DNA from: an uncultured Actinomycetota bacterium
GTDB lineage: Bacteria; Actinomycetota; Actinomycetes; Propionibacteriales; Nocardioidaceae
DNA length: 64,000 bases
Assembly (NCBI GenBank): GCA_963761205.1
Contig: CAVXFX010000007.1
Span: 64,726 to 128,725, forward strand
Direction: 5' to 3'
Each line of letters starts with the position of its first letter. Position 1 is the first letter of the stretch. A program made the translations under genes and the position numbers. The notes beneath the pieces were generated by a model. The model saw only the letters and a program-made list of their open reading frames with translations. It was not told the origin of the DNA and searched no databases. Shown in pieces: positions 13,713 to 61,628 of this stretch.

Positions 13713-13726
13713 TAGAACAGGTTCTC
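13713..13726. promoter_or_regulatory. KstR-type (TetR family) operator-like palindrome
   Basis: TAGAACAGGTTCTC matches 13/14 positions of TAGAACnnGTTCTA (a palindromic instance of TnnAACnnGTTnnA; the last position mismatches). It lies 21 nt upstream of the DUF35 start, in the 63-nt divergent spacer. Confidence 0.45.
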
Positions 13727-13755
13727 ATTCTCGCACATGTGTCACCCTGTGCCCC

Positions 13756-14592: not shown

Positions 14593-14624
14593 TCGCACGC
14601 CCACCTGCGTGAAACGATTCGCGG

Positions 14625-14999: not shown

Positions 15000-15049
15000 G
15001 TCCTGTCCCGGGAGGCCCGAGACGTCGCCTCGAGGGTCAACGGGCTCAA

Positions 15050-15095
15050 GTAGCCTGCCGGCCACCATCGGGGGGTGGGATGGCCGACAGGCTAC
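15050..15095. other. 15-bp imperfect stem-loop in a 325-nt convergent intergenic region
   Basis: gtagcctgccggcca / 16-nt loop / tggccgacaggctac, with 14/15 pairs. On the minus strand the loop reads TCCCACCCCCCGATGG. Confidence 0.4.
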
Positions 15096-15324
15096 GCCTG
15101 TGGGAGCGCATGCGCGTTCGGCCTGGTTCTGCCGGGCGCTCGCGGGCCACCTGGGTGAACAGACCGGTCGTGTCCGGGGTCTCTGCCAGGTCTCAATCAG
15201 GTTCTCGCGCTGCAATCTCGTGCACCGCTTCTCCCCCGATCCTACGCCCCTCCAGCCAGCAACGGGAGGGCTGGCGAAACGCAGGCTGACCGACGGGGTG
15301 GGCGGCCGGAGGCAGCCGGCCGGC

Positions 15325-37722: not shown

Positions 37723-39822
37723 ATGAGCCAGCCGGCCCCCGAGGCCAAGGTCAGGGGCGCGTGTCCGCACGACTGTCCTGACACCTGCGCGTGGACGGTG
37801 ACCGTCCAGGACGGTCGCGCGATCTCGCTGGAGGGCGACCGCGATCATCCGTTCACCGCGGGCGGGCTGTGCACCAAGGTCAACCGGTTCCTGGACGACC
37901 GGGTCTATCACCCGGACCGCTTGTTGCACCCGATGCGGCGCACCGGACCGAAGGGCTCGGGCCAGTTCGTCCGGATCGACTGGGACGAGGCGATAGCCAC
38001 GATCGCCACCCGGCTCTCGGGGATCATCGCGACCGACGGCGCCGAGGCCGTGATGCCCTACAGCTACATGGGAACCCAGGGCCTCGTCCAGGGCGAGGCG
38101 GTCAGTGAGTCGTTCTTCGCCCGGCTGGGCGCGACGAGGCTGGTCCGGGCGGTGTGTGGAAGTGCCGGCAACTCCGGCGAGGCGGTGACGATGGGCCGTG
38201 GAGCGGGCCTGCCTCCCGAGGAGCTCGTCCACTCGCGGTTCATCGTGCTGTGGGGCACCAACACGCTCTCGACCAACCTGCATCTGTGGCCGTTCATCAG
38301 GGCGGCCCGCGAGGCGGGCGCCACCGTGGTGGTCATCGACCCGGTCCGCACCCGTACTGCCAGCGCCGCGGACTGGCACGTTCGTCCACTCCCGGGGACC
38401 GATGCGGCCCTCGCCCTCGGGTTGATGAACGTGATCGTCGCCGAGGGCCTGGTCGACCAGGAGTACGTCGATCAGCACACCGTTGGCTACGAGGAGCTGT
38501 GTCGCCGCCTCGAGGACTATCCCCCCGAGCGGGTCGCCCAGCTGACCGGGCTCGAGGCTGACGAGATCCAGCGGCTCGCCCGCGCCTACGCCGCGAGTCG
38601 ACCGGCTGCCATCCGGCTGCTGGTCGGGATGGAGCATCACGAGCACGGAGCGGCGATGTTCCGGGCCATTGCGTGCCTGCCTGCACTGGTCGGGGCCTGG
38701 CGTGAGCGGGGCGGCGGCCTGTGCCACATGACGGTCCACTTCGCGCTAGAGGTCGACCACGGGTGCGGAGTGGAGGTGCCCGAGCAGCCGACCCGCGAGG
38801 TCAACATGGTGCAGCTCGGCCGTGCCCTGACCACGCTGCGGCCGCCGCTGAAGGCACTGCTGGTCTACAACTCCAACCCCGCAGCAATCGCTCCCGAGCA
38901 GAACCTCGTCTTCGAGGGTCTCGCTCGCGAGGACCTGTTCACCGTGGTGGTCGAGCACGTGCTGACCGACACCGCGCGCTTCGCCGATCTCGTCCTACCG
39001 GCCACCACCCAGGTCGAGCACCATGACGTGATGTGGTCGTGGGGTCAGACCTACGTCGCCTGGAACGAGCCCGCGATCCCGCCCGTGGGTGAGGCGTTGT
39101 CCAACGCCGAGATCTTCCGCAGGCTGGGGCGCCGGATGGGCTACGACGACCCGGTGTTCACCACGCAGGACGCGGCCCTTGCCGAGGCTGCCGTCGCGCC
39201 GTTGGGTGCGGATCGGGTGACCGAGCTGAAGGCCCGCGGCTGGCTGCGTCTGGACGGTCCCGACGACGCGATCCCCTACGCGAACGGCGGGTTCGCGACG
39301 GCCTCGGGCAAGGTCGAGTTCTTCAGCGCGGACCTCGAGTCCCAGGGCCTGGATCCCCTGCCGGCCTACCGGCCCGCGCAGGAGGGCCCGCAGGGCGACC
39401 CGACGTCCGCGAGTCGCCATCCCCTGATCCTGCTCACCGCCAAGGGAGCGCACCACTTCCTCAACTCCGGCTATGTCCACGTCGAACGCGCCCGGCGAGC
39501 CGAGCGGGAGCCGTTGCTGGACATCCACCCCGTCGATGCCGAGGTGCGTGGGATCGCCGACGGGCAGACCGTACGGGTGTTCAACGACCGCGGTTCCCTG
39601 ACGCTGCACGCACGGGTGGGTGACCGGGTCAGGCCGGGAGTTGTGTCCGTGCCGTCGGGTTGGTGGGCGTCCGCCTCCCCGTCCGGCCGCTCCGCCAACA
39701 GTCTGACGGCCGACGGCCTCTCCGACCTGGGCGGAGGCGGCGACTTCCACGACACGCTGGTGGAGGTCGCCGCCGAGGCAGCTGGGTACGCCCAGGACGG
39801 CGCTGGTGGTCAGCCGTCCTGA
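37723..39822 (+). CDS. molybdopterin oxidoreductase (DMSO-reductase superfamily, cytoplasmic type)
   Basis: N-terminal 4Fe-4S motif 'CPHDCPDTCAW...GGLCTK'. MopB domains and a C-terminal beta-barrel ('VRVFNDRGSLTLHARV'). Confidence 0.9.
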   Translation: MSQPAPEAKVRGACPHDCPDTCAWTVTVQDGRAISLEGDRDHPFTAGGLCTKVNRFLDDRVYHPDRLLHPMRRTGPKGSGQFVRIDWDEAIATIATRLSGIIATDGAEAVMPYSYMGTQGLVQGEAVSESFFARLGATRLVRAVCGSAGNSGEAVTMGRGAGLPPEELVHSRFIVLWGTNTLSTNLHLWPFIRAAREAGATVVVIDPVRTRTASAADWHVRPLPGTDAALALGLMNVIVAEGLVDQEYVDQHTVGYEELCRRLEDYPPERVAQLTGLEADEIQRLARAYAASRPAAIRLLVGMEHHEHGAAMFRAIACLPALVGAWRERGGGLCHMTVHFALEVDHGCGVEVPEQPTREVNMVQLGRALTTLRPPLKALLVYNSNPAAIAPEQNLVFEGLAREDLFTVVVEHVLTDTARFADLVLPATTQVEHHDVMWSWGQTYVAWNEPAIPPVGEALSNAEIFRRLGRRMGYDDPVFTTQDAALAEAAVAPLGADRVTELKARGWLRLDGPDDAIPYANGGFATASGKVEFFSADLESQGLDPLPAYRPAQEGPQGDPTSASRHPLILLTAKGAHHFLNSGYVHVERARRAEREPLLDIHPVDAEVRGIADGQTVRVFNDRGSLTLHARVGDRVRPGVVSVPSGWWASASPSGRSANSLTADGLSDLGGGGDFHDTLVEVAAEAAGYAQDGAGGQPS

Positions 39823-40808
39823 TGCGGGATCAAGAACCACGCGGCCGGGATCCGGGCTGCGCCGCACGTGTTCTCCTTGACCGTCCCGCGCATACCGGTG
39901 GTGTTCGGGTTGATCTGCTGCACGGCGCCCAGGACGAGCCGGTCACCCGTGCTGCAGTCGGCGGAGGCAGCTGAGCTGGTCAGCGTGAGCTCGGAGCCGC
40001 GGAAGGACCACGTGCCCTGGTCGACCGGTTCGCCAGACTCGCCCGCGAGGAAGTAGGAACCACCGGGGTCGATCTCGATGGCCTGCCCGCCTCCCTCGGC
40101 CAACCAGAGGCCGTACAGGGTGGCCTTGTCCGAGACTCGCTTCCAACCGGGATCCTGGGAGAGGACCATCTCGGTCAAGCCCTGGGACGTCGGCAGCACC
40201 TGCTCCCACACCAATCTCCCGGGCCCCGTGAGGGAGCAATCATCCAACGTCTCGATGGTGCGGACGGACCGCATCGCTCCGGACTCCGGGAGAGCCGCGT
40301 GCATGGCGAACTGTTTGCCGGAGCAGCCGGACCGGGCGTCGTCGGTGGCGGTCACGGTGATCACGTCACCGTCGATCTCATAGGTGCCCGTGGTGGCTGG
40401 CTGGCCGAAGATCGTCCCGTGCTGGTCGAACCGGACGGTGCCGTCCTCGCGGAACTGCACCACGGTGGTGCCGTTGTCCTCCCGCCAGACTCCGGCGATG
40501 AGCTGGGGCGTCGGGACGCTCCCGGTGAGGAAGTCCGCGTTGCCGTCACTGGGGTCGGTGGGTGGTTTCGCCGCAGGTGCGCCCTTGTCGTCCCCGCCGA
40601 ACGTCTCGAACGCCGCGACCCCGAGGACCGGGATCAGGACGGCTGCCGCCACGGCCGCTACCGCCGCCGTCACTGTGCGCCGGCCACTTCGCCGCGCCGT
40701 ACGCTGCTCCACTTCCAGGCGGGCCTCGCGCAGGTCTGAATCGGTCATGATGATGCCTCCTGTCACTGCCGCGATGTCCCGCGCGAGCCGCTCCTCGATG
40801 CTGCTCAT
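39810..40808 (-). CDS. putative single-pass anti-sigma factor with a ~250-aa extracytoplasmic domain
   Basis: ATGA overlap with the ECF sigma stop. TM 'VTAAVAAVAAAVLIPVLGVAAF'. Cys pairs are present in the ectodomain. Confidence 0.55.
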   Translation of the reverse strand: MSSIEERLARDIAAVTGGIIMTDSDLREARLEVEQRTARRSGRRTVTAAVAAVAAAVLIPVLGVAAFETFGGDDKGAPAAKPPTDPSDGNADFLTGSVPTPQLIAGVWREDNGTTVVQFREDGTVRFDQHGTIFGQPATTGTYEIDGDVITVTATDDARSGCSGKQFAMHAALPESGAMRSVRTIETLDDCSLTGPGRLVWEQVLPTSQGLTEMVLSQDPGWKRVSDKATLYGLWLAEGGGQAIEIDPGGSYFLAGESGEPVDQGTWSFRGSELTLTSSAASADCSTGDRLVLGAVQQINPNTTGMRGTVKENTCGAARIPAAWFLIPHQDG

Positions 40809-41377
40809 GGGGTCACCTCGATCCTCTTCTGAAGTACCTGCAGCCCGCGGTGTTGGTGGGCCTTGACCGAGCCGTCACTGATCCCGAGCAGTTGGGCCGT
40901 CTCGGCGACGGACAGCTCGAGGACGAACCGGCAGGCCAGCACCTCTCTCTGGCGTCGCGCCAAGGTCCGCATGATCGCGACCACGGATCCGACCTCGTCG
41001 CGGACCACCGTCGTCTCCTCCGGGCTCGCGGACGGTTCGCGCACGAGCATCAGCGGTCTCGGGGCTCGCTGGGTGATCTGACGCCGCACCCAGGACCGAC
41101 AACGGTTGAGCACTGCGGATCGGAGGTACGCCTCGGCGGACTCGGGATCGCGCAGCGAACGCCGGTGACGGTGCAGCGCCACGAAGGCGTCCTGGACGGC
41201 GTCCTCCGCAGCCTCCCGGCTTCCCAGCATGACGACACCGAGCCGGAGGAGGTCGGCGTAGTTCTCCCGGAAGAGCAGGTCCACGAGCTCCGCGCGAGTC
41301 GGCTCGACCGCCCAGTCGGGCCGGCTGGTCCCACGCCGCTCACCCAAGAGCCTCTCCTCCGGACCGGAGTTCGTCAT
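40805..41377 (-). CDS. ECF (sigma-70 family) sigma factor
   Basis: Region 2 'AEDAVQDAFVALHR' and region 4 'SVAETAQLLGISDGSVKAHQHRGLQVL'. The start is uncertain (ATG 41377 or an upstream TTG). Confidence 0.85.
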   Translation of the reverse strand: MTNSGPEERLLGERRGTSRPDWAVEPTRAELVDLLFRENYADLLRLGVVMLGSREAAEDAVQDAFVALHRHRRSLRDPESAEAYLRSAVLNRCRSWVRRQITQRAPRPLMLVREPSASPEETTVVRDEVGSVVAIMRTLARRQREVLACRFVLELSVAETAQLLGISDGSVKAHQHRGLQVLQKRIEVTP

Positions 41378-41483
41378 GCCCGAGAGTCGCTCACATCGCT
41401 CCTCAGGTTGACACAAGTCGGAACTGGTGTGGACCAGTGAGCTGATGACGTGACGTCGCATCAGCCGGACACGAGAACGATTC

Positions 41484-41514
41484 GTCACGTCCGTGCGGTC
41501 ACGCTGCGGTCACG
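41484..41514 (+). promoter_or_regulatory. direct repeats with about one helical turn of spacing (candidate SARP box)
   Basis: TGCGGTCACG at 41494-41503 and at 41505-41514 (11-nt period). A third GTCACG lies at 41484-41489. The repeats sit about 100 nt upstream of the neprosin-like gene. Confidence 0.35.
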
Positions 41515-41610
41515 GAGGAGTACGCCGTACTGACCACGCTGCTGGAAGAGATCCGCGACGGGGCGAGGACTCCCCAGAAGCCGGAGCTCGGTGAGGCAGG
41601 TGGACTCGTC

Positions 41611-42858
41611 ATGGCGGACCCGCGGGGAATCCTCCCCTACGCCCCCTTCAGGAGCATGGTGGAGGGCGCCACCATCAAACAGTTCAAGGACGACCCCCGT
41701 GCGGCGGTCACCAGCCGGGCGAAGTTCACCGAGATGCAGGCGCACCTGGCGGACCTGTACGCCGACGTCGAGGCCGAGGCCAGCTTCGAGGACGCGGGTG
41801 GCCGGGTCATCGACTGCATCCCGATCGAGCAGCAACCCTCCCTCCGTGGCGGGGACGCCCCGATCGCCACTCCGCCCGACCTGTCGCCGGTGTTGCACGG
41901 CCGGGCGCCCACGGCCAGCAGCGAGCTGCCGATGGCACCCACCGACTTCGGCCGCCGCGACCGGCACGGCAACCGGATGCGCGTCCCGGCCGGGACGATC
42001 CCGGTCCACCGGGTGACCCTCTCCGACCTGGCGCGCTTCCCGTCGCTCGGGGACTTCCTCCACAAGGAGGCCGGTCCCACGGCCGTTCCGCCGAGCGTCC
42101 CCGACGCGAGCACCGCCAACAACCACCGCTACGCCTACACGCACCAGACGGTGAACAACATCGGCGCGCACAACTCGCTCGCGGTCTACTCCCCCGCCAT
42201 CAACAACGACCAGGTCTTCTCCCTCGCCCAGCACTGGTACGCCGGCGGCACCGGGAACGGGCACCAGACCCTGGAGGTCGGCTGGCAGGTCTACCCCGCC
42301 AAGTACGGCCACGCCCACCCGGTGCTCTTCATCTACTGGACCGCGGACAACTACAAGACCACGGGCGCCTACAACCTCGACCAGCCCGGCTTCGTACAGA
42401 CCAACACGGCGTGGACCATCGCGGGAGCGCTCAGCCCGGTCAGTGTGCGCGGCGGCCAGCAGATGGAGATCCAGGTCACGACGTACCTCTACCAGGGCAA
42501 CTGGTGGATCTACCTGGGTGGCGTCACGGCGGCCCACGCGTTGGGCTACTACCCCACCTCCCTCTACAGCGGTGGTCAGATGGCCACCAGCGCCCAGGAG
42601 ATCCTCTTCGGCGGCGAGACCGTGACCAAGCAGGTGTCGTGGCCGGGCATGGGCAGCGGAGAGTTCGCCTCCGGCGGCTGGCAACAGGCGGCCTACCAGC
42701 GCAACATCTACTACTACCCCACGGGCGGCGGCGCGCAATGGGCGTCGCTGACCGCGGAGCAGCCGTCCCCGGCGTGCTACACGCTCACCCTGGGCTCGGT
42801 GGCCCCGCCGTGGGGCATCTACTTCTTCTACGGCGGCAGCGGCGGCGGCAACTGCTGA
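41611..42858 (+). CDS. neprosin-family (DUF239) glutamic peptidase with an N-terminal activation (pro) domain; no signal peptide
   Basis: 'GGRVIDCIPIEQQPSL' (pro-domain). 'FSLAQHWY', 'LEVGWQVYPAKYGHAHPVLFIYWTADNYKTTGAYNLDQPGFVQTN', 'GNWWIYLGG', 'LGYYPTSLY' and 'FGGETV...MGSGEFA' match the DUF239/neprosin consensus as I remember it. Confidence 0.85.
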   Translation: MADPRGILPYAPFRSMVEGATIKQFKDDPRAAVTSRAKFTEMQAHLADLYADVEAEASFEDAGGRVIDCIPIEQQPSLRGGDAPIATPPDLSPVLHGRAPTASSELPMAPTDFGRRDRHGNRMRVPAGTIPVHRVTLSDLARFPSLGDFLHKEAGPTAVPPSVPDASTANNHRYAYTHQTVNNIGAHNSLAVYSPAINNDQVFSLAQHWYAGGTGNGHQTLEVGWQVYPAKYGHAHPVLFIYWTADNYKTTGAYNLDQPGFVQTNTAWTIAGALSPVSVRGGQQMEIQVTTYLYQGNWWIYLGGVTAAHALGYYPTSLYSGGQMATSAQEILFGGETVTKQVSWPGMGSGEFASGGWQQAAYQRNIYYYPTGGGAQWASLTAEQPSPACYTLTLGSVAPPWGIYFFYGGSGGGNC

Positions 42859-42894
42859 TCGCGTCCCGTCCCGCGCAGCGACAGGGGAGGATCC

Positions 42895-45800
42895 ATGGCG
42901 TCAACCGAAGGTGCACCGAGCATGGCACCGGGCGAAGGCCCGACCCCGACCGCGTTCCGCGCTGCTGAGAGCCGACTCAACCGCTCGCTGGGCGACAACA
43001 TCGGCACCGGTGGCGGCGGCGGACGGGAGATCCCCGCGGTGGCGGACACGTCGCGGCTCCGCATCCCGCTCACCGCCGACCCGCTCGCCGATGCGGCTGT
43101 CTCGACCGGACTTCTCCACGCTCGTGGCGCCGCCGTCGAGCACCTGTTCACCAGCATGGCCCAGGTGCACGGGGACCTGGGCATGCTGATCAAGACCCTG
43201 CAGCTGCCGGTCGCCCCACCGAACCTGATCGGCGTCCTCGTCCAGCCCGACGGCTCCCCGGCGGGCCCGGTGCAGATCCAGTTCAACCCCGCGGACCTGC
43301 ACGACCCGAGCCCCGTCGTGACGCTGGTCAACGACGCCACCGGCGCCTTCTCGATGCCGCTGCCCAAGGGCATGACGCTCCCGGAGACCACGTTCCTGCA
43401 CCTGACCATCCACGGCGGCGGCGGCAACAACGTCCGGGTCGACGTACCGGCCACCCAGATCGCCGCCAACGGCCTGGCCGGCACGATCATGCTGCCCGCA
43501 TTCATCTCCCCCCTGCCGGTCAGCATCCTCGCCTCCCTGCAGGCCCTGGCCCCGCCGCCGCAGGTCGATGCCCCTGAGCCGGCACCGACCAACACCCCGC
43601 AGCTGCCGGTCGTCTCGATCGGCGACGACGACGGCTGCCTGCTGCAGTACGGCGCGAACAGCTCGATCGACAAGTTCCCGTTCGGTGTCTTCTTCCGGCT
43701 CGTGGAGCCGCGCGCCAGCATCGTCTCCGAGGTGCACCCGATCGTCGTCGGGCCCGGGCGGTTCAAGTACCTGCCCAACTACGCGACCATGGCGATCACC
43801 GCCCTGGAGAAGCCCGGCCAACCCGGGACGGAGTCGATGGCTTTGCCCGCTGTCCCGGCCGGCGCGACCGACGAGGGCCTGGTCGAGTACGTCGACCGGG
43901 TGCCGGTCGAGCAGCCGATCAGCGTGGACGGGTTCCGCGAGCAGCTGATGGGGCTCCAGCAGAACGGCACCTTCACCGGCGACGAGACCCGTCCGATGGC
44001 GGGGACCCTGGGCATCGGCTACGTCTTGTCGATGTCGCAGCGCTGGACCTTCCTCGGCCTCGCACTGGGCGACCTCGTCTACTCGCTGCCGCTGGCGCCG
44101 GGCGAGCAGCAGCAGGTCGCGATCTTCGAGCGCGTCGACACCGCCCGGGTGTCGGAGTCGGAGATGTTCAGCGAGTCCCAGGCCCAGGATCAGCGCGCCA
44201 CGGCCGACACGTCCACCCGCGCCACCTTCAACTCCGCCTTCAACGAGACCGTGCGCGGCAGCAGCTCCTTCGACGTCCACTCGGACTCCTCGAGCTGGGG
44301 CGGCAATTTCATCCTGGTCAGCGGCGGAGGCGGCAGCTCGTCCTCGAGCGGGTCGTCCTCCCAGTCGCTGCAGGGGCAGCGCAACACCTCCCAGTCCGCG
44401 GCCCAGAACACGCACTCGGCGGCGGAGAACCAGGCCTCCGCGCGGCGCCAGGCTGCTCGGACCGGCATGCGGATCGCCACCGCGAGCGAGTCCGAGCAGG
44501 TCACCACCAAGGTGATCACGAACCACAACCACACGCACGCGATGACGATGCAGTACTGGGAGGTGCAGCGGCTCTACGACGTCAGCACGGCGATCGACGG
44601 ACTCAGCCTGACGGTGCTGGTGCCCCTGCAGGTGGTGCGGTTCATGCCGCCCGGTCAGCCCGCCACCCTGACCAACCCCGCGTCGGTCGGGTCACGGTCA
44701 CTGGTGATGCAGCGCTACCGCGAGATCATCAAGCACGCCGACGTACTCGCCCAGGCCCTGCCGCGTCGCTACCAGCACGGCCTGACCATGCTGACCCAGT
44801 TCGCCGCAGACCCGATGGCGCAGGTCGACCCGGCGGGTGGTGCCGCCGAGGACGTCATCCGGTTCACCCTGAGCGGGACCTTCCTCAGCTGCGAGGACAT
44901 CTACGTGAGCGCCGTGTCCAACCGCGGCACCCGGCTGGGCCCGGTCAAGCTGGCCAGCGACGCCACGCCGCCACCGGAGGACGTCTTCGACAGCCGCGAC
45001 CAGCTGGTCGCCTGGGTCCGCAAGCAACGGGAGGGCGGCAGCCTCAACTTCACCGGCGCCCTGGCGCTGCCGTTGTCGATGAACCGCTCCAGCATCGTCG
45101 GCTTCGAGATCAGCCGCTCGTTCCGGTCGCTGTCCTACACGCTGATCACGCCCCAGCAGGCCGAGGTGAAGATGCTGCAGAGCATGCTGCCCTCGACCGT
45201 CGACTGGCTGAGCAAGCTCACCTCGCTCAGCAGTGCGTCGCGGCGTACGACGGTGGTGCTGACGCCGGCCGACCTGGAGCGGGCCGCGGGCGGTCCGCGG
45301 CTGACCGGCTTCACGGCAGCGATCGAGGAGGTCGACGCGAGCGGCTCGACCAACCCCGGCGAGCAGTACGCGAACGAGGGGCTGTCCAACATCGAGCTGC
45401 CCCAACAGCCCTACCCGTTGCCGGCGCGACAGCTGGCCCCCGTCCTGCGCTACAGCGAGGTGCTGGAGATCGAGGGGATGGCGGCGCACGTCGTGCGGAA
45501 CACGCTGACCTACTCGCGGGCGATCTGGTCCTCGATGAGCGAGCTGGAGCGGGCGATCCTGCTGGAGGCCTACACGATCGGCGTACCCCCGGGCGGTGTC
45601 GCCGACGCGACCCAGATGGTGCCACTGCTCAACTGCGTGGAGAACACCGTGCTCGGCTACTTCGGCAACTCCATGATCATGCCGTTCATCATCCCGCAGG
45701 CGCTCACCGACCAGGAGAAGGTCGGCGGCGAGCGGGTCGACCCGGTCCGGCTGCACGACGCACTCCTCGGCTACCAGCTGAGCACGTTCCGCCCGCCGCA

Positions 45801-46683
45801 CTCGACGATCGCGCTACCCACCCGCGGCGTGCTGGCGGAGGCGGTGCTGGGTCACTGCGCCTCGGCCGAGAAGATCGACCTCACCCGCTTCTGGAACTGG
45901 CAGGACTCGCCTGCGGACACCGCCCCGACGATCTCCCCGGTGACGCTGCCGACCGGGTCGGAGTCGATCGCCGGCGGTCTGACGGCACCGAACTCGCTGA
46001 CCAACCTGCCGTCGCTGATCAACAACGTGCTGACCGCGCCGGCGCCGGACAGTGCCCTGCTGAACGCCCTGGCCCAGGCCGCGGCGGCCCAGAAGGACTT
46101 CGACTCCGGGCTCACCGGCGCCAGCGGGCTGGCGGGCCTGATCCAGAACGCGCAGAACACCTCGAACTCGGCCCGCGCCGACGCGCTCAAGGCGAACTCG
46201 GAGTACCGCGCCCAGGCGATGGCCACCCTCGGCAACATCTTCGGCGGCATCTACGGCGGCAACCCGGAGGCCGGCTCTAAGGCTGCCGCCGCGCTCCGCG
46301 GCACCGGCGGCCAGAGTAGTTCCCAGGGCGGCTCCTCGGGCGGTACGCCGGGGCAGACGCAGGCGCCCGCGCCGGGCGGCGGCGGGAAGGCCGGTGACCA
46401 GAAGGACGGGACCCCCGCTGGCGGCGCTGGCGCCGGTCCGGCCGGAGGTCCGGCGGGCGGCGCAGGTGGTGGTCCTGCCGGTGGCGGCGGCGGTCCTGCG
46501 GGCGGAGGCCCCGCCGGTGGCGGCGGCGGTCCAGCCGGAGGAGGAGGCCCGGCCGGCGGCACTGGCGGAGGCCCGTCCAGCGGCCCCTCGAGCGGACCGG
46601 CCGGCGGACCCGGCGGAGGAGCGGGGGGCGCTCCCCCGGTGGCCCCGCCTGCTCCCGATGGCGACACAACGGAGGGAGAATAG
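42895..46683 (+). CDS. 1,262-aa protein with no domain I recognise; Gly/Pro-rich C-terminal tail
   Basis: ATG after GGGGAGGA, 36 nt after the upstream stop. Amino-acid composition is protein-like throughout. It has the 'NHNHTHAMTMQYWEV' motif (nt 44521-44565) and a Ser/Gly linker. No TM segment or signal peptide. Confidence 0.8.
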   Translation: MASTEGAPSMAPGEGPTPTAFRAAESRLNRSLGDNIGTGGGGGREIPAVADTSRLRIPLTADPLADAAVSTGLLHARGAAVEHLFTSMAQVHGDLGMLIKTLQLPVAPPNLIGVLVQPDGSPAGPVQIQFNPADLHDPSPVVTLVNDATGAFSMPLPKGMTLPETTFLHLTIHGGGGNNVRVDVPATQIAANGLAGTIMLPAFISPLPVSILASLQALAPPPQVDAPEPAPTNTPQLPVVSIGDDDGCLLQYGANSSIDKFPFGVFFRLVEPRASIVSEVHPIVVGPGRFKYLPNYATMAITALEKPGQPGTESMALPAVPAGATDEGLVEYVDRVPVEQPISVDGFREQLMGLQQNGTFTGDETRPMAGTLGIGYVLSMSQRWTFLGLALGDLVYSLPLAPGEQQQVAIFERVDTARVSESEMFSESQAQDQRATADTSTRATFNSAFNETVRGSSSFDVHSDSSSWGGNFILVSGGGGSSSSSGSSSQSLQGQRNTSQSAAQNTHSAAENQASARRQAARTGMRIATASESEQVTTKVITNHNHTHAMTMQYWEVQRLYDVSTAIDGLSLTVLVPLQVVRFMPPGQPATLTNPASVGSRSLVMQRYREIIKHADVLAQALPRRYQHGLTMLTQFAADPMAQVDPAGGAAEDVIRFTLSGTFLSCEDIYVSAVSNRGTRLGPVKLASDATPPPEDVFDSRDQLVAWVRKQREGGSLNFTGALALPLSMNRSSIVGFEISRSFRSLSYTLITPQQAEVKMLQSMLPSTVDWLSKLTSLSSASRRTTVVLTPADLERAAGGPRLTGFTAAIEEVDASGSTNPGEQYANEGLSNIELPQQPYPLPARQLAPVLRYSEVLEIEGMAAHVVRNTLTYSRAIWSSMSELERAILLEAYTIGVPPGGVADATQMVPLLNCVENTVLGYFGNSMIMPFIIPQALTDQEKVGGERVDPVRLHDALLGYQLSTFRPPHSTIALPTRGVLAEAVLGHCASAEKIDLTRFWNWQDSPADTAPTISPVTLPTGSESIAGGLTAPNSLTNLPSLINNVLTAPAPDSALLNALAQAAAAQKDFDSGLTGASGLAGLIQNAQNTSNSARADALKANSEYRAQAMATLGNIFGGIYGGNPEAGSKAAAALRGTGGQSSSQGGSSGGTPGQTQAPAPGGGGKAGDQKDGTPAGGAGAGPAGGPAGGAGGGPAGGGGGPAGGGPAGGGGGPAGGGGPAGGTGGGPSSGPSSGPAGGPGGGAGGAPPVAPPAPDGDTTEGE
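46417..46635 (+). repeat. low-complexity coding repeat (GGPAGG-like)
   Basis: It encodes AGGAGAGPAGGPAGGAGGGPAGGGGGPAGGGPAGGGGGPAGGGGPAGGTGGGPSSGPSSGPAGGPGGGAGG. Confidence 0.9.
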
Positions 46684-46687
46684 GACC

Positions 46688-47410
46688 ATGCCCTCGAACC
46701 CGCGCACCGGCACGGCGGCACCGATCGAGGATCCGCCGAGCGAGCTCACCGAGCCTGCTGCTCCAGGCGTCCAGAACCCTCCCATGACCCCGGCCCCCCC
46801 TGCCGGACCCGAGGAGCCCGACACCGGGCCGGCCGGTGGTCCCGGCGGTGGACCCGTCGGGGATCCGGGCGGCGGTCCAGGCGGAGGTCCGGGTGGCGGC
46901 CCGAGTGGTAGCCCGGGCGACGCCGGTGGCGGCGGGACTCCCGACCCGGGGACCGGTGGTGGCGGCACGGGAACCCCCGGCACGACCACGGGCTCCGGCG
47001 GTCCGGCCGTCGACGACGCAGTGGCCACCAGCCTCGCGGCCAGCCTGCTCGACCTGGTCACCGAGGCCAACTCCCCCGAGGCGCTCGAGGCGCAGCGGAT
47101 CATCCTGCGGCGGATCGCGTTGCAGGGCGACGTCGTCCCGTCGCGTGTGCCGGCCCCGCGCAACATCACCGAGATCGGCGGCTACCTGAACCTGCTGGAG
47201 ACCCTGGGCCAGGGCGGCATGGAGCTCCAGACCCTCGCCGGCATCCTCGGCATCGCGGCGGCCGGCAGCCCGGAGGGACTGCTGAGCGCGGCACCGGTGC
47301 TCTCGCTCACACCGGTGCCGAACGACCGGCCAGTGGGGCCGGGGCAGCGTCGCTGCCGGTCTCGGTCACCGTGCGCAGTGACTTCGCCGCGGCGCTGCTC
47401 GCCGCGCTGA
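46688..47410 (+). CDS. Gly/Pro-rich N-terminal protein; probably the 5' part of a frame-shifted ~500-aa gene
   Basis: ATG 4 nt after the upstream stop, with GGAGGGA inside the upstream gene end. The last ~22 codons are Arg/Cys-rich junk ('QRRCRSRSPCAVTSPRRCSPR'). Confidence 0.6.
   Translation: MPSNPRTGTAAPIEDPPSELTEPAAPGVQNPPMTPAPPAGPEEPDTGPAGGPGGGPVGDPGGGPGGGPGGGPSGSPGDAGGGGTPDPGTGGGGTGTPGTTTGSGGPAVDDAVATSLAASLLDLVTEANSPEALEAQRIILRRIALQGDVVPSRVPAPRNITEIGGYLNLLETLGQGGMELQTLAGILGIAAAGSPEGLLSAAPVLSLTPVPNDRPVGPGQRRCRSRSPCAVTSPRRCSPR
46826..47003 (+). repeat. low-complexity coding repeat (GGGP/GGGT-like)
   Basis: It encodes GPAGGPGGGPVGDPGGGPGGGPGGGPSGSPGDAGGGGTPDPGTGGGGTGTPGTTTGSGGP. Confidence 0.9.
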
Positions 47411-48189
47411 CCGCCGTCCGGGCTGCCGGCGCGGTCGTGCCGATGCTCGGGGCGCCCCCGTCACTGCCGGTGCGTGGGATTGCGGCCCCCACGCGACCCG
47501 ACGCGCTGCCCTATCTCGGTCGCACGCTCACGCTCGCGTCGTCGTACGCCACCACCTCCCCGGTCGACGACGTACTGCTCCTGGCTCGCGACCAGGGCTC
47601 GTCCGGACCCTTCCGGGTGGCGGCCCGGACAGCGACCGGTGGCGTAGGCACTAACGTCGAGGCATTGCTGTGCACCGGCCAGATGTGCACACCTGTGGAC
47701 GTCAACGGCGCGTCCCTGATCTACCTGGACGGACCCCTCGGTGCTGCCGGCTTCTACGGCGCCGACCCGCTCCCGACCCCGACGTCGTCGAGCGATACGT
47801 CGTGGGCGCGGCTGACCAACGTGACCGGACTGGTCGCCGGACAGACCCGGCTGGGAGACGAGCTGGCGCTGCTCTACTCCTGGGAGGCCATCCACGCGAG
47901 CGTCTTCCACGACGCCCTCGACCTGGTGTGGGACGGCTCCGGCTTCGCCGCAGCCTCGGCTGGCGGACCCGGTGGCGGACCCGGCGGTGGTCCCGGCGGT
48001 GGTCCCGGTGGCGGTCCCGGTGGCGGTCCCGGCGGTGGTCCCGGCGGTGGACCCGGCGGTGGACCCGGCGGTGGACCCGGTGGCGGTCCCGGCGGCGGTC
48101 CCGGCGGCGGTCCCGGCGGCGGACCCGGCGGCGGACCCGGCGGCGGACCTCAGCCCGCTCCCCCGTCCGGTCCGGACCAGCCCGGCTGA
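47371..48189 (+). CDS. protein ending in (GGGP)x16; probably the 3' part of the same frame-shifted gene
   Basis: The GTG 47371 start has no convincing SD. This frame is already open and protein-like from about 47341 ('GAASLPVSVT'). Confidence 0.6.
   Translation: MRSDFAAALLAALTAVRAAGAVVPMLGAPPSLPVRGIAAPTRPDALPYLGRTLTLASSYATTSPVDDVLLLARDQGSSGPFRVAARTATGGVGTNVEALLCTGQMCTPVDVNGASLIYLDGPLGAAGFYGADPLPTPTSSSDTSWARLTNVTGLVAGQTRLGDELALLYSWEAIHASVFHDALDLVWDGSGFAAASAGGPGGGPGGGPGGGPGGGPGGGPGGGPGGGPGGGPGGGPGGGPGGGPGGGPGGGPGGGPGGGPQPAPPSGPDQPG
47959..48150 (+). repeat. tandem 12-nt repeat, 16 units, encoding (G/A)GGP
   Basis: Counted directly. One AGGP unit is followed by 15 GGGP units in five synonymous variants, arranged in runs of 2-3 identical units. 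Confidence 0.95.
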
Positions 48190-48333
48190 GCGCCGCTGGC
48201 CACCGTGCTGGCCCGGGCGATCGTGCGCCCGAGCGGGCGTTTGCTTGCCTCGGCGCGCCATCAGGTGCACGCTGGACGAAGCGGTCACTTCGCCTCCTCC
48301 GGTGACTGCAACCGGCGGAGACAGGAGGCGGCG

Positions 48334-49065
48334 ATGGGCGGCGTGCACCACCAGGACAGGGCCTGGCAGTTGCAGTTGCTGAACGGCTGGGAGCTCCGAA
48401 GCCTCGGCGAACCGTTGCATGCCCCGGTGCGGATGCAGCGACTGGTCGCCTTCCTGGCCCTGCAGGGCAGCCGGCCACGTGGGCTGGTCGCTGCCGAGTT
48501 GTGGCCCGACAGCAATGAGGCGCACGCACGGTCCAACCTGCGCACCACCGTCGTCCACGTGCACCGGGTGGCGCCGGGGCTGCTCATGCCGGAGCGCGAC
48601 CCCCTGGCCCTCAGCGCCCACGTCGGGGTCGACGTGGCCGCCCTCCGCGTGGCGTTGTCGGAGCCCTCCGACGTGTCTGGCTCAGACCTGACCCGCGCGC
48701 TCCTGGACACCGGCGAACTGCTGCCCGGCTGGTACGACGACTGGGTGCTGTCCGACCGGGAGCGGCTCCGCCAGCGGAGGATCAACCTGCTCGACCGGTT
48801 GTCCGGCCAGCTGCTGGACGAGGGGAACCTGCCCCTGGCGAGCGCAGCCGCCCTGACGTGCGTCGCGCTGGAGCCCTTGCGCGAGAGCCCGCACCGCACC
48901 CTCGTCCGCATCCATCTGACCCAGGGTGATCGCGTCGAGGCGTTCCGGGTCTACCAGGGGTTCCGTCGGCGCAGCATCGCCGAGTTCGGGCTGGCCCCCG
49001 ACACCGCCTTCCAGCACCTGATGGAGCCTCTACTGGACGAGCGACGGCGGCGGCTGACGCACTGA
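48334..49065 (+). CDS. SARP-family (AfsR/DnrI/RedD-type) transcriptional activator
   Basis: ATG after AGGAGG. OmpR-type wHTH ('RMQRLVAFLALQG...RSNLRTTVVHVHR') plus a BTAD domain ('LEPLRESPHRTLVRIHLTQGDRVEAFRVYQGFRRRSIAEFGLAP'). Confidence 0.85.
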   Translation: MGGVHHQDRAWQLQLLNGWELRSLGEPLHAPVRMQRLVAFLALQGSRPRGLVAAELWPDSNEAHARSNLRTTVVHVHRVAPGLLMPERDPLALSAHVGVDVAALRVALSEPSDVSGSDLTRALLDTGELLPGWYDDWVLSDRERLRQRRINLLDRLSGQLLDEGNLPLASAAALTCVALEPLRESPHRTLVRIHLTQGDRVEAFRVYQGFRRRSIAEFGLAPDTAFQHLMEPLLDERRRRLTH

Positions 49066-49099
49066 GCGAGACGATGCGTTGGCCTCCCGCCCCGTCGGC

Positions 49100-50728
49100 T
49101 CAGGTGAGCCCCTGGTCGAAGGCGTACGCCGCAGCGGCGGTCCTGGACGGGACGTCCAGCTTGGTGAAGATGTTGCTCAGGTGCCGTGCGACCGTCTTGT
49201 CGCTGAGGAACAGGGCAGCGGCGATCTCCGGGTTGGACATGCCGGAGGCCACCAGCCGGAGCACCTCGGCCTCGCGGGCAGTGAGGCCACCAGGCAGGTT
49301 GCCCGGGGCGAGCAGCCGGTCCGCCTCGTGGGCGTCCGGAGTGGCCCCGAGCGCCGCGAGCGCCTCGGCCGCGGCCGCCAGCTCGGTGACCGCGGACTGC
49401 TCGTCGCCCAGACCGCGCAGCGCGCGACCCACGAGGACCTGAGTCCGCGCGGTCTCGTAGGGGCAGCCCAGCTCCCGCCATCGGTGCAGCGCCGCGCGCA
49501 GCGGTTCCAGTGCGTCCTCGGGTCGGCCCTCGGCGAGGGCCAGCGCCCCGACGGCGTACCCGGCCATCGCCCTGAGCGAGCTCGAGTCGAAGGCGTCCCC
49601 GACGGCGTCCAGCTCCGCGACCAGCGGACGCGCGGCAGCGAGGTCGTTGCCGGCGAGGAGCACGTCGATCGCACCGGACAGCAGCTGCGAGCGATGGATC
49701 GGGTCCAGCGGCTCGCCGAGCGCCCGGTGTACGGCGGCACAGGCCGCGTCGGTGCGACCGCGAGCGAGGGACAGCAGTGCCTGAGCGGGCTGGGGGTCGT
49801 GGCCGAAGCCGACCGCCTGTCGGAAGGCCTCCTCCGACGAGGCGTACTCACCGCGGATGCGAAGCAGGTCGCCCTTCTCGGCGCGGGCGAGCCCCGCGGC
49901 GGCCGGGGTTCCGGCCGAGACGTAGCGTGCGACGGCATCGTCGAGCTCGGCGATGGCCTGCTCAAAAGCACCCCGGACGCGCATCACCTGAGCACGGTGG
50001 ACAGCGCACTGGCCGGTGAACGGCACCAGCCCGACCTGGGCGCCGCACCAGGTGGTCAGCGCCGTCGTCCACTGCGCCACCCTGCCGAAGTCCGAGATCT
50101 CCTGGCAGGCCTCGACCAGTGAGCAGTACGTGTGCCCGGCGAAGATCGGCGACACCTCGCCCGTGGAGACGCCGACCATCGCCTCGTCGAGCAGCCGCAC
50201 GCCCTCGGGTACCCGACCCAGGTAGAGCAGGCATCGGCCCTGGGCCATCAGGCCGGCGGCGAGCAGGTCGCCGTCCCCGAAACGCCTGCCGTACGACGTG
50301 AGGGAGGTGGCCTCGTCGAGCCCGGTGACCGGGTCGCCGTCGAGGACGTGCCGGAGCATCCGGAAGAACAGGATGTATCCGTGCTCGACGGTGTCCTCCT
50401 CGAGCGTCTCCAGCAGCCGGTCGGCCCGGGAGATCCAGCCACTCGCGACGGCAAGCTCCCGGCGGTCCATCAGCGTCATGGCCAGCCAGAAGGCACACCG
50501 GACGGCGGCCGGCCGGTTGCCCGCGTCGAGGTGGGCCTGGTGTGCCCGCTGGAGGGCCTGGATGCAGTCGTTGTGGCGGCCGACGAGGAAGGCAGCGGTG
50601 GCGAGGTCGGCGAAGTCGGCGGCCAGGAGCGCATCGCTCCCGGCTGCCGAGAGACCTTCGTAGGCCGCCACCCAGTCACGGCGGTCAAAGGCCTCGCGCG
50701 CCCGCTGCAGCTCCTCGACGACATCCAC
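49100..50728 (-). CDS. LuxR-family regulator with an N-terminal TPR-like helical domain
   Basis: C-terminal '[43 protein letters not shown]'. Confidence 0.85.
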
Positions 50729-51982: not shown

Positions 51983-54160
51983 TTAGGTCGACTGCTCCTT
52001 CTCGCCGTCCGGGCCGAAGTCCGACCTGGGGTCGACGACGCGGAAGGTGAGGTTCGTTCGAGCGGATCTGCCCACGGCAAGCTCGACGGTGTGCTCGCCG
52101 GGCTCCGGTGTGCCGAGCCACAGGTCGAGCCCGCGTCCCACCTCGTCACCGTCGAGCAGCCACCGTGCGGTCTCCTCGTCCTCGAGTGGCGAGCCGTCCT
52201 GCCGGATGGCCGCACCCCAGAGTCGCAGCGGGCCCCCGGCAAGCAGCATCTCCCCCTCCTTGGGCGCGTGGATGGCGACCTCAGGTGGGCGCTCCGGAAC
52301 CTTGACGGCGACAGGTCGGGACGCCGCTGTCTCGAAGCCGTCATGGAGCAGGGCGCGCACCAGCACCGACCCGGGCGGCAGCCCAGCGGAGTCCACGACC
52401 GCCTCCCGCTCGTGGATGCCCGTCGCCAGGCCGTGCCAGCTCGCACCCTTGTCGTCCGACCACTGCAGCCAGACCTCGCTCGGCTCCTCGAGGTCAGCGT
52501 CTCCGGTCCACGACACCCGCAGCGTCTGGTCGCGACGGAGCATCGCAGCGACCTTGCCGATCTTGGGACGCCTGGCCCCTGGTCCCCGCTGCCACACGGC
52601 CTCCTCGCCCGAGGAGATCCGGAGCAGTGCCCCGCGTTCCGAGGTGGGGACGTACGCCTCGAACGCGTAGGGGTACGGCGAGTCGCCCTCGTGGTCGCCG
52701 CAGCCACAGTCCCCGTGGGTCCGCAGGCGCATCACGCCACCGCTGGCGATCACCCGGCCGTCGGCGTCGGTGAGCTCCGCAGTCAGGTCGGTCGCCTCTC
52801 CAGGGGGTGCTCCCATCGCGGCGACGCGAGCGACGCTGGTGACCTCGACGTCGCGCGCCGACCGCACGGTGCCGCTGATGGCGATCACGGGGTTGAGCAA
52901 CATGTCGAGCTGCTTCCAGGGTTCGGGTGGGTAGGGCAGGTCCCGCTGGACGGCGTACTCGCGGAACTCGAGCTTGTCCACCCATAGTGGCGTGTCACCG
53001 ACGAACTCGGGAGCGAGACGGGCGTGGTTGATCAGCCGGTCGTGCTGGTAGAGCGACATCCACTGCGGGAAGCAGTAGGACATGTAGTCGGACGTGGTGG
53101 CCGGCGACAGGACCGCTCCGTTGGAGATGTTGAGCCCGTACTCGCCGATGGATGCCGACGGGTAGGGCTCGTACGTCGGGTAGTTCGGGTCGCTGGCCCC
53201 CGTGTTGCCGCAGGGGGTGTGCTGGAAGCCGTAGCCGTGACCGATCTCGTGGACGAAGGTGCCCTGGTCCCCGTTCCTCCCCGCGCCCAGACCGCCGACT
53301 CCACAGCCCGGGACCCCCAGCGGGATGGCGGCGGGCAGCAGACCGTAGTAGACGACGTCGCCGCGGTTCCCGTCGTTGGTCCGGGTCGTCGTCAGCCGGG
53401 TGAGCAGTGAGTTCCAGTTGTTCGAGCAGCCGCCGGCACCGGTCCGGGGGTCGTCGAGGGGGAGGTTCCACGCCACGGTCCCCGCCGACGTGAACCACCC
53501 CGTGGACTGCACCGGCATCATCAGCAGCGCGCGGGCCGCGGTGGCCTGCGCGTCGGCGAGGGTCGGAGCGGCCAGCGTGATGGTCGGCGGCGGCGGGGTG
53601 CTCGCGACCGAGGTGCTCGGCCCGTTGTAGCTGACGAGGATCGCCCGCAGCCGCAGGGTCTGGCGGAGCGACGCGTCGATGACGAGGGTGCGGGAGTGGT
53701 ACTCGGTGCCGGAGGTGGCATGCCGCAACTTGACGGTCAGGCGCAGGGTGCCGGTGAACTGGGCTGCGGGGATCACGAAGTTGAGGGTCTCGGTGGTGCT
53801 GGAGCGCTCCTGGACGTAGGTCTCCGTGCTCGACGCGGACAGCACCCCCGAGCCCGTCGGAGCGAGGGTCGCGACCGGGAACCACAGGAACCCGAAGGCC
53901 CGACGCTCGATCTTCAACGACGCGGTGACCGGGGTCTCGCGGAAGCTCTGGGCGTAGACGCGCACCCAGGCCGGCTTGTCGGCCACCAGTCGCGCCGAGT
54001 TGTCGGCGCGACGATCGGCAGGGTCGGTGAGGTGCTGGGCGGACTGGTAGTACTGGATGGCTTGGGTGACCTCGACCCCCGAGATCCACGTCCATCGAAA
54101 CGGAAACCAGTCGCGCACCATCTTCTGGATGTCGACGACGTCAAAGGGGAACTCGCTCAT
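51983..54160 (-). CDS. metzincin-type zinc metalloprotease (M43/ulilysin-like core) with a long C-terminal beta-rich region; no signal peptide
   Basis: 'HEIGHGYGFQH' (nt 53219-53251) matches HEXXHXXGXXH. A 'SDYMSYC' Met-turn candidate lies ~50 aa downstream. ATG 54160 is preferred over GTG 54169. Confidence 0.75.
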   Translation of the reverse strand: MSEFPFDVVDIQKMVRDWFPFRWTWISGVEVTQAIQYYQSAQHLTDPADRRADNSARLVADKPAWVRVYAQSFRETPVTASLKIERRAFGFLWFPVATLAPTGSGVLSASSTETYVQERSSTTETLNFVIPAAQFTGTLRLTVKLRHATSGTEYHSRTLVIDASLRQTLRLRAILVSYNGPSTSVASTPPPPTITLAAPTLADAQATAARALLMMPVQSTGWFTSAGTVAWNLPLDDPRTGAGGCSNNWNSLLTRLTTTRTNDGNRGDVVYYGLLPAAIPLGVPGCGVGGLGAGRNGDQGTFVHEIGHGYGFQHTPCGNTGASDPNYPTYEPYPSASIGEYGLNISNGAVLSPATTSDYMSYCFPQWMSLYQHDRLINHARLAPEFVGDTPLWVDKLEFREYAVQRDLPYPPEPWKQLDMLLNPVIAISGTVRSARDVEVTSVARVAAMGAPPGEATDLTAELTDADGRVIASGGVMRLRTHGDCGCGDHEGDSPYPYAFEAYVPTSERGALLRISSGEEAVWQRGPGARRPKIGKVAAMLRRDQTLRVSWTGDADLEEPSEVWLQWSDDKGASWHGLATGIHEREAVVDSAGLPPGSVLVRALLHDGFETAASRPVAVKVPERPPEVAIHAPKEGEMLLAGGPLRLWGAAIRQDGSPLEDEETARWLLDGDEVGRGLDLWLGTPEPGEHTVELAVGRSARTNLTFRVVDPRSDFGPDGEKEQST

Positions 54161-54363
54161 GGGGGGCACTCCATTCAGATCCGGTATGGACGATCACCAC
54201 GTCGCCGGTGTGCAGGCTGGCGCCGCGGTCGATGCCGAGACCCCGACAGCCGAGCCGCGAGGTCGGCCGGAAGGAGGTCGGTGACGCCCGTGCTGCGTTG
54301 GGTGTCGCGAGAGATCCGACATACCGTCGCCTTGCCCGTCGTGCCGAAGCGGGCGATTCGACG

Positions 54364-60988: not shown

Positions 60989-61070
60989 ACTGCACCGTAG
61001 GCGCACGGTCACGTGATGCGTAGGGAAACACCCGGTTCCTCGGAGCTCAGGAGTCCCTAGCGTCGATGAC

Positions 61071-61628
61071 ATGAGAATCTTCGCAACAGTTCCAGTGCTG
61101 CTCCTCGCGCTGCTTGGCGCGTGCGGCACCAGCAACGACACCACGTCCAACGCCTCAGCCAAGGACCCGGCCGTCTCGTCGACCACTCCTTCCGAGCCCC
61201 GCACCACCGGCAAGCCGGCCACGGGCAAGCCGAAGACCGACCCCTGCGACCTGCTCACCAAGGGGATGGCCGAAGCCGCCCTCGGTGTGCCGGTCGGTGC
61301 GCCGACGAAGACGCCCGGGGAAGGCAACGTGACGTGCGTCTATGCGCCGGCCGACGGCACCGCCAACGTCTTCGCGCTGCTCACGACGTACGCCGCGTCG
61401 GGCGAGAAGGCTCTGATGACAGCGACCGCGGCATTCCCCGACGCGAGACGGGTGCCCGATCTCGGCGACGCGGCGATCGTCTCGCGCCGCGGCCACGCTC
61501 TCGGCGTCGCCGTCGACGACCTGATCTTCGCCATCAGCGTGCTCAGGACCGACTCGTTCTCGGTCGACCCGGCCGTCAGCGAGCAGCAGCTGATCGTGCT
61601 GGCTCGAGACGTCGTCCAGTCCAGGTAG
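61071..61628 (+). CDS. DUF3558-like lipoprotein (paralog of 57561-58172)
   Basis: Lipobox 'LLGACG'. 'DPCDLLTKGMAEAALGV' and 'NVTCVY'. Confidence 0.7.
   Translation: MRIFATVPVLLLALLGACGTSNDTTSNASAKDPAVSSTTPSEPRTTGKPATGKPKTDPCDLLTKGMAEAALGVPVGAPTKTPGEGNVTCVYAPADGTANVFALLTTYAASGEKALMTATAAFPDARRVPDLGDAAIVSRRGHALGVAVDDLIFAISVLRTDSFSVDPAVSEQQLIVLARDVVQSR

Follow-up and report, generated by a model that had tools for sequence, protein, structure and literature searches.

Neprosins are familiar from carnivorous plants and are under development as enzymes for coeliac disease; what does a peptidase of this family do in a bacterial operon? The question is raised by a 64,000-nucleotide (nt) stretch of contig CAVXFX010000007.1 from an uncultured member of the Nocardioidaceae (hereafter the window), in which a neprosin gene (gene A) is followed on the same strand by a gene for a protein of 1,262 amino acids (aa; gene B) and by a gene for a smaller protein (gene C). 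We find that a three-gene cassette, mobile by horizontal transfer and with B-C as its invariant core, occupies positions 41611-48189, and we hold the B-C pair and the cassette boundaries with very high confidence. As for what the cassette does, sequence comparison makes it somewhat probable that B-C is a mobile module whose disordered extensions would be processed by a dedicated peptidase. The parts of the cassette are as follows.

41611-42858, plus strand: gene A, neprosin, 415 aa (PF03080, E = 9e-54)
42895-46683, plus strand: gene B, 1,262 aa, without family match, after a 36-nt gap from gene A
46291-46680, plus strand: Gly/Pro/Ala-rich disordered C-terminal tail of B (residues 1133-1262), with Tandem Repeats Finder arrays at 46471-46560
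46688-48189, plus strand: gene C, ~500 aa, after a 4-nt gap from B, as overlapping open reading frames (ORFs) at 46688-47410 and 47371-48189
46688-47011, plus strand: Pro/Gly-rich disordered N-terminal extension of C, with a Tandem Repeats Finder array at 46829-46899
47957-48146, plus strand: (GGGP)n C-terminal tail of C, 12-nt unit, 15.8 copies (Tandem Repeats Finder)

The map of the window was re-derived by ORF listing, codon-position GC and domain scans. The operon-like packing claimed in a preliminary description of this DNA (gaps of 36 nt and 4 nt, an overlap, then 144 nt to a regulatory gene) was reproduced by the ORF listing, the three Gly/Pro tracts it reported were recovered as the tandem arrays listed above, and the lack of a signal peptide or transmembrane (TM) helix was confirmed for all of the operon products. 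The good Shine-Dalgarno sites that it assigned to the first three genes are borne out for B and C, which have GGAGG-type sites, and less so for the neprosin gene, where the site is weaker (GGTGAGG/GGTGGA); the start of the regulatory gene downstream is likewise preceded by a GGAGG-type site. A scan of 41300-49200 for sigma-70 promoters and terminators found none.

The B-C pair and its distribution

The comparison set comprised 83 non-redundant loci related to the cassette, 10 of which have too little downstream DNA to be informative on gene C. In 72 of the 73 informative loci C follows B directly, and in the remaining one, which is archaeal, it lies just upstream of B; no informative locus lacks C. 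These B-C loci span Actinomycetota, Chloroflexota, Pseudomonadota, Acidobacteriota, Gemmatimonadota, Nitrospirota, Eremiobacterota, Bacillota and one archaeon. The complete arrangement also recurs outside the source genome, with A, B and C co-directional and the neprosin gene immediately upstream of B, at 17 non-redundant loci besides the window, in at least six phyla. Clustering of ORFs across the loci gave two recurrent neighbours only: the neprosin, at 17 loci, and a protein with TIG repeats, at 6-7. The 120 immediate neighbours scanned against Pfam were heterogeneous housekeeping genes, with no secretion, defence or phage signature. The cassette is thus a small island in unrelated genomic contexts, and it is also found on Novosphingobium and Ruegeria plasmids and on a Ralstonia megaplasmid.

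Two loci carry further marks of their history. The archaeal locus lies on a closed Methanoregulaceae chromosome (OY969564.1, 792143-815308, GC 0.49) and encodes a B protein 62% identical to that of the window, with C and a TIG-repeat protein upstream of B in rearranged order; it looks like a bacteria-to-archaea transfer of the cassette. In Nocardioides sp. zg-1228 (locus L001), a fragment of a TrwC relaxase gene adjoins the cassette together with a DUF3024 gene (6718-7242 of that locus), a hint that this copy arrived on a conjugative element.

Protein B consists of a disordered N-terminus, a transthyretin-like β-sandwich, a conserved core of ~830 aa and a helical C-terminal region with a near-invariant GxxxGGxxxG motif; the B proteins of the core pair measure ~1,150-1,260 aa. 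In a collection of 5.8 billion proteins, 438 homologues share 53-78% identity with it over ~95% of its length; their hosts belong to Actinomycetota, Alpha-, Beta- and Gammaproteobacteria, Nitrospira, Gemmatimonadota, Acidobacteriota and Eremiobacterota, and their core contains zero Pfam domains. Counted with one genome per species, relatives at 40-78% identity occur in 439 of 185,579 species from more than 10 phyla, among them Chloroflexia, Bacillota, Bdellovibrionales, Cytophagia and the closed Methanoregulaceae chromosome, and a profile search of 1.84 billion representatives places 2,977 clusters (at 50% identity) in the family.

The preliminary description had called the large protein unrecognised, and that verdict survived searches by sequence, profile and fold. 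In Pfam, NCBIfam, PADLOC and PHROGs neither B nor C has a match. Against PDB sequences, a narrow and a broad profile of B and a profile of C returned low-complexity noise only, such as huntingtin polyQ. An AlphaFold2 model of B built on a 50-sequence alignment has a mean pLDDT (predicted local distance difference test) of 58.9; it is confident at residues ~105-215 and ~557-890 and falls below 50 in the most conserved segment, residues 390-556. By Foldseek, only the N-terminal sandwich found a match in the PDB (transthyretin/CarboxypepD_reg-like, E ~6e-3), and nothing in BFVD reached E < 1e-3. As active sites in B, LLNCVEN (as a CxEQ-like thioester motif) and a protease-like dyad of Cys and His were considered and both rejected, because the motif is not kept in the distant clade of the family.

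The two overlapping Gly/Pro-repeat proteins of the preliminary description are in fact one gene, C, which encodes a conserved globular partner of B and is interrupted by a 1-nt frameshift. The frame changes between ...NDRPVGPGQ and SLPVSVTVRSDF..., near 47348-47350, in a way that fits one missing base, and it does so at an invariant NDRP.GP.Q motif, so that a helical N-domain is split from an α/β domain. Because the homologues are single ORFs, we read the two window ORFs as one gene: in Nocardioides sp. zg-1228 (13475-15274 of its locus) a single 599-aa ORF has the same N-terminus (MPSNPRTG...), core and (GGGP)n tail, and the Novosphingobium and Ralstonia homologues are also single ORFs. In the window, either the sequence is in error at this point or the gene carries a genuine lesion that inactivates it. 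C has a core of ~320 aa, helical plus α/β, with variable extensions, and 517 homologues at 43-63% identity. In its AlphaFold2 model the α/β domain has pLDDT >90, and comparison of the model with PDB folds gave no match. The best hit (E = 1, probability 0.23) was Hedgehog/VanY-like, an identity that we rejected because C has no invariant His.

It is very probable that B and C function as a complex. By sequence, profile and fold, B, C and the cassette match no described family or system, and full-text literature searches found no description of the cassette; its core is unclassified.

One might ask whether such an element is a remnant of a phage or of a phage-tail-like structural module. Family members carry Big_2, TIG and LRR domains without signal peptides, as virion proteins do, and distant members match PHROG Ig-domain structural families. 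Those PHROG matches, however, stem from the Ig domains, and the B and C cores match neither PHROG nor BFVD entries. In 50,697 phage genomes a tblastn search with B had no match, and the surroundings of the cassette are free of phage genes. A phage origin is essentially excluded.

The neprosin and the proline-rich extensions

Gene A adds a new bacterial member to an established family, the MEROPS G3 glutamic peptidases. Its catalytic domain, PF03080, scores 182.6 bits against a gathering cut-off of 22, and the protein matches the neprosin structures 7zu8/9qr8 in the PDB at E = 8e-38. Plant neprosin (Nepenthes; PDB 7ZU8) is a post-proline endopeptidase zymogen with the catalytic dyad E188/E297, which matures itself at the P128-S129 bond and is active at strongly acidic pH (PMC9343461). 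Gene A matches it from pro-domain to C-terminus and keeps the dyad as E222/E336, along with H134, Y136, Q173, W175, T186 and Y214 (plant numbering), and the equivalents of E188/E297 are intact in 18 of 18 cassette neprosins. Its pro-domain scores 32.7 bits as Neprosin_AP, under the cut-off of 39.2; the alignment to the zymogen structure begins within the pro-domain, and relatives of gene A are recorded with PF14365. Judged by the conserved dyad and supporting residues, the cassette neprosin looks active. It differs from the plant enzyme in standing in a bacterial operon with two uncharacterised proteins and in having no signal peptide; none of the 18 cassette neprosins has one, so that they depart from the secretion expected of neprosins. 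Bacterial neprosin homologues are rare (~50 sequences in Pfam 35), and their function has not been described (bioRxiv 10.1101/2022.02.22.481544).

All neprosin-bearing loci form a single clade in a neighbour-joining tree of B, and every member of this clade with upstream DNA has the neprosin gene. The hosts are Actinomycetota, Chloroflexia, Eremiobacterota, Nitrospira, Alpha- and Gammaproteobacteria and Acidobacteriota. The conserved core is B-C, and the neprosin is an accessory of one clade. Both neighbours of the peptidase differ in composition within and outside this clade. The median proline fraction of the B tail is 0.13 in loci with neprosin and 0.025 in those without (p = 3e-7), and it is still 0.02 in the neprosin-less loci with a GC content of at least 65%; for the N-terminal extension of C the corresponding medians are 0.205 and 0.08 (p = 2e-5). 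The tails of the neprosin clade are divergent (GGGP, PSPSPS, TPTGGG), yet they all contain proline, with PxPGP(P) as a frequent ending. In the other clades, C starts with a TIG domain or has no extension, and the tail of B is rich in Gly, Ser, Thr, Asp or Lys and ends in other modules.

These observations keep part of the protease/substrate module that had been proposed earlier, in that the proline-rich extensions of both B and C are confined to the neprosin clade, and set another part aside, as the (GGGP)n tail is no general feature of the system. That tail is a local actinobacterial addition to C, lineage-specific and variable in length; comparable tails occur only in Nocardioides and Isoptericola/Actinotalea, and most C proteins of the neprosin clade have no C-terminal tail. 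In the near-identical pair of Nocardioides assemblies (loci L001 and L002), the tail measures 198 aa in one and 99 aa in the other; the array is either hypervariable or was collapsed during assembly.

Could the neprosin simply have been transferred along with B-C as a passenger, such as a nutritional peptidase, and have no functional link to the pair? A reverse search starting from the neprosin retrieved six metagenome loci. One of them (62% identity) has B-C, and two others, at no more than 44% identity, have room for B and yet lack it, so neprosin homologues do occur apart from B; most B-C loci, moreover, have no neprosin. Against such a passenger stands the retention of the gene immediately upstream of B and co-directional with it in 17 of 17 non-redundant clade members with upstream DNA as well as the window, across at least six phyla, together with clade-specific proline-rich extensions on both of its neighbours. 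The absence of a signal peptide is also unlike what a nutritional exo-enzyme would be expected to show. We consider the passenger explanation very unlikely. Retention of proline-rich tails and neprosin together, through deep divergence and cross-phylum transfer, argues instead for functional coupling.

Modular family plan and possible roles

Distant members of the B family are longer, 1,400-2,456 aa, and the conserved core (profile positions ~320-1150) makes up their C-terminal two-thirds. They keep the motifs LYSL.LAPGE, NHNH.H..T.QYWEV, PLLNCV.N and EKIDLTRFWNW and have added N-terminal LRR, Big_2 or Ig domains and DUF4332. Several end in a peptidase domain, which is of the C70 (AvrRpt2-like) class in at least five, caspase C14 in one and C13 in one; one fused caspase domain matches the EACC1-associated type. 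These relatives stand alone, without C, and a C domain was looked for inside them and not found. Among the other B homologues, the segment after the linker is OmpA-like in six sequences, each just under the Pfam cut-off, and C-terminal end-pieces elsewhere are TIG or Big_2 domains or tails of ~14 hydrophobic residues; one homologue begins with a PG_binding_1 domain. The neprosin-less operon of Ralstonia continues after B and C with a 144-aa ORF and then an M64 peptidase that carries six TIG domains. With it, five catalytic classes of peptidase are recurrently associated with the B family. The family has a common plan in which a binding-type, variable N-region precedes the conserved core, with a flexible low-complexity linker and then an exchangeable end-piece behind it. 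The accessory domains (OmpA-like, PG_binding_1, TIG, Big_2, LRR) are all of extracellular or cell-wall type and point to a role at the envelope or outside the cell that would be reached without a signal peptide.

The C-termini of the B proteins P0052-P0117 fall, behind the low-complexity linker, into discrete types, DLAGDAGALLA, VLPILAALL (~14 hydrophobic residues), D(I/V)(L/M)(E/D)V and PxPGP(P), which resemble alternative signals for sorting, anchoring or recognition. Whether the ends in ALLA and D(I/V)L(E/D)V might be signals for type I secretion was considered, and the idea was rejected: no type I secretion genes are linked, and the window B has no such end. P0069 (1,523 aa) has an extra C-terminal globular region of ~330 aa with a hydrophobic segment, GVVSVGPMLLAMATIGAAVYLL, and no Pfam match; this region could be an effector-like add-on.

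The IgA peptidases of the M64 family (Clostridium ramosum type) offer a comparison for the Ralstonia operon, where an M64-TIG protein stands in place of the neprosin. The M64 type enzyme cuts a Pro-Val bond in the proline-rich hinge of IgA, and the Ralstonia peptidase would therefore likewise be a linker-cutting, proline-directed one. It belongs to another catalytic class than neprosin and was seen in one lineage only, and the Ralstonia B tail is just 7% proline.

In the clade that includes the window, the cassette acquired a neprosin gene directly upstream of B, and the tail of B and the N-terminal extension of C became proline-rich concurrently. We propose the following mechanism as the most likely. 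The neprosin zymogen would activate itself, as the plant enzyme does at a Pro-Ser bond under acid (PMC9343461), and would then cut after prolines in the disordered extensions of B and C. This cleavage would trim or release the extensions, so that the B-C complex is matured, activated or detached, and the exchangeable end-pieces would tether B to components of the envelope. On present evidence the cleavage step itself is an even call.

Several points weigh against this proposal. As the neprosin was gained once, the correlation with proline-rich tails is one evolutionary event, though a long-retained one. Most B-C loci have no adjacent peptidase, and processing cannot therefore be essential to B-C function. 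By analogy with the plant enzyme, which needs acidic pH, a bacterial neprosin without a signal peptide may be inactive where it is made. No family member has a signal peptide, in conflict with an envelope location. Finally, with C frameshifted, the cassette may be defective in the window unless the frameshift is a sequencing error.

The proposal of a B-C module processed by its peptidase can be taken a step further: B-C may be a new protease-matured machine, either a pore or toxin complex or an envelope assembly, that is exported without a signal peptide and has spread as a cassette of 2-3 genes among bacterial phyla and to archaea; in the neprosin clade, the peptidase would be an acid-triggered switch that removes proline-rich 'safety' extensions from both partners. 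This bolder version is tentative, and we think it rather unlikely as a whole.

For the ultimate role of B-C there are two main readings. In the first, B-C is a conflict module, a toxin or an effector of cell suicide or defence, in which B is a latent protein that damages membranes or is toxic in another way, C its partner or antidote, and the peptidase activates B by cleavage, after the logic of protease-activated gasdermins or polymorphic toxins. The exchange of five peptidase classes around one core would fit such a role, as would the fused EACC1-type caspase, the sensor-like LRR or Ig domains at the N-termini of distant members and the patchy, horizontally driven distribution that includes plasmids. 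The near-invariant GxxxGGxxxG motif points the same way, the low model confidence of the most conserved segment of B might reflect a conformational change, and some neighbours are TIR-STAND, HipBA or restriction-modification genes. However, there is no PADLOC match and no consistent defence-island context among the 120 neighbours, B has no evident amphipathic TM hairpin or hydrophobic segment, and C is conserved and co-evolves with B, unlike variable immunity genes; the peptidase, moreover, is absent from most loci.

The described systems closest to such a module share some of its features. In bacterial gasdermin systems, which have a caspase-like or other protease next to the gasdermin, as here, a peptidase of interchangeable class adjoins or is fused to a non-enzymatic-looking effector, and the components have no signal peptides. 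B differs in having no gasdermin or other recognised pore-forming fold and in being ~4x larger, and the cassette differs in its obligate partner C and its mostly peptidase-less loci. Polymorphic toxins resemble B in their large conserved body, low-complexity linker and variable end-pieces, C70 papain-like peptidases included; B, however, has neither a trafficking domain (of type V, VI or VII secretion systems, or Rhs) nor a recognisable toxin domain, and the downstream C is conserved rather than hypervariable in the manner of an immunity protein. A conflict module of this kind seems unlikely to us.

In the second reading, B-C is a structural or adhesive assembly of the cell envelope or surface, in which the end-piece anchors B to membrane or peptidoglycan and the peptidase releases or remodels it. 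The OmpA-like end-pieces (six sequences, below the cut-off), the TIG, Big_2 and ~14-residue hydrophobic ends, the PG_binding_1 domain at one N-terminus, the transthyretin/CarboxypepD_reg-like sandwich in B and the TIG domains of many C and neighbouring proteins would all suit a surface assembly. The missing signal peptides tell against it, no secretion genes are linked, and an identity of 55-60% across phyla is unusually high for surface proteins; we rate such an assembly as quite unlikely.

Regulation, surroundings and significance

A further set of genes flanks the cassette, and the preliminary description had assigned its control to them.

39810-40808, minus strand: anti-sigma gene, with one TM segment (residues 49-67), the only clear one among the encoded products
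40805-41377, minus strand: extracytoplasmic function (ECF) sigma factor gene, SigE-type, with Sigma70_r2/r4 domains and a SigE-family match (Pfam, NCBIfam); ATGA overlap with the anti-sigma gene
Between the ECF sigma and neprosin genes: spacer, 233 nt
41494-41514, plus strand: direct repeat TGCGGTCACG, two copies at 11-nt spacing, 97-117 nt 5' of the neprosin start; candidate box for a Streptomyces antibiotic regulatory protein (SARP)
48334-49065, plus strand: BTAD/SARP gene, after a 144-nt gap from C (PF03704, E = 9e-13)

This layout, with an ATGA-coupled ECF sigma/anti-sigma pair divergent from the cassette across a 233-nt spacer that holds an 11-nt-phased repeat, was confirmed. The functional claim built upon it, that the ECF pair and the SARP jointly control a protease/substrate operon in which (GGGP)n tails are trimmed, is not supported by the comparison. 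Homologues of the ECF sigma and anti-sigma factors were found by tblastn at 0 of the 83 related loci, and because of this absence we regard the pair as a chance neighbour; no ECF-type promoter was identified in the spacer, which was inspected by eye only. The SARP also adjoins the Nocardioides cassette, where, in the L001/L002 pair, a BTAD gene 47% identical to that of the window diverges from the neprosin gene. That is the sole other species: no other locus has it, other actinobacterial cassettes included. The (GGGP)n tails too are limited to a few actinobacteria. We consider this full system, with joint control by the two regulators, very unlikely.

What remains of the proposal concerns the SARP alone, which is probably a locally recruited activator; the 11-nt-phased repeat lies at a place suited to a SARP box, so that control of the cassette by the SARP is plausible in this sub-lineage. 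The arrangement resembles SARP-activated actinomycete operons in its small BTAD regulator and in the 11-nt-phased repeat upstream of the first gene. It differs from them in that no biosynthetic cluster lies near the window SARP, that Pfam gives no winged helix-turn-helix (Trans_reg_C is not detected at E < 0.01, and the N-terminal ~110 aa are SARP-like by eye) and that the repeat is not kept in Nocardioides, whose spacer has no matching TGCGGTCACG-type sequence and carries instead a 16-nt repeat at 22-nt spacing. Of dinucleotide shuffles of the spacer, 0.85% contain an exact 10-nt repeat with a spacing of 8-22 nt, as do 4.7% of all 233-nt segments of the 64 kb, which makes the repeat only moderately unusual.

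Four other genes of the window were noted. Two of them, close to the cassette at 49100-50728 and 58268-61339 (both minus strand), encode LuxR-family regulators that have TPR regions and, in the larger, also an AAA_16 ATPase domain. In tblastn against the related loci the two gave only weak, scattered LuxR-like matches at five loci (35-48% identity, 45-72 bits). The position of these matches relative to B-C was not consistent, and the regulators are therefore not conserved neighbours. ORFs of 728 and 588 aa at 51983-54169 and 10248-12014 (both minus strand) have coding-type GC at third codon positions and no Pfam domain at E <= 1e-5.

Importantly, B and C are large, strongly conserved families (55-78% identity between phyla) that are unannotated and always travel together, and such conservation combined with frequent horizontal transfer implies a strong selective benefit. 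The association with five peptidase classes and the co-variation of neprosin with proline-rich extensions provide a testable handle on the role of the system. Experiments are feasible, since the cassette is present in cultured organisms: Nocardioides sp. zg-1228, Isoptericola/Actinotalea, Holophaga foetida, Geothrix rubra, Novosphingobium pentaromativorans US6-1 (on a plasmid) and Ralstonia pseudosolanacearum (on a megaplasmid). If the proposed processing of B and C is true, a bacterial neprosin would for the first time have a physiological role assigned to it.

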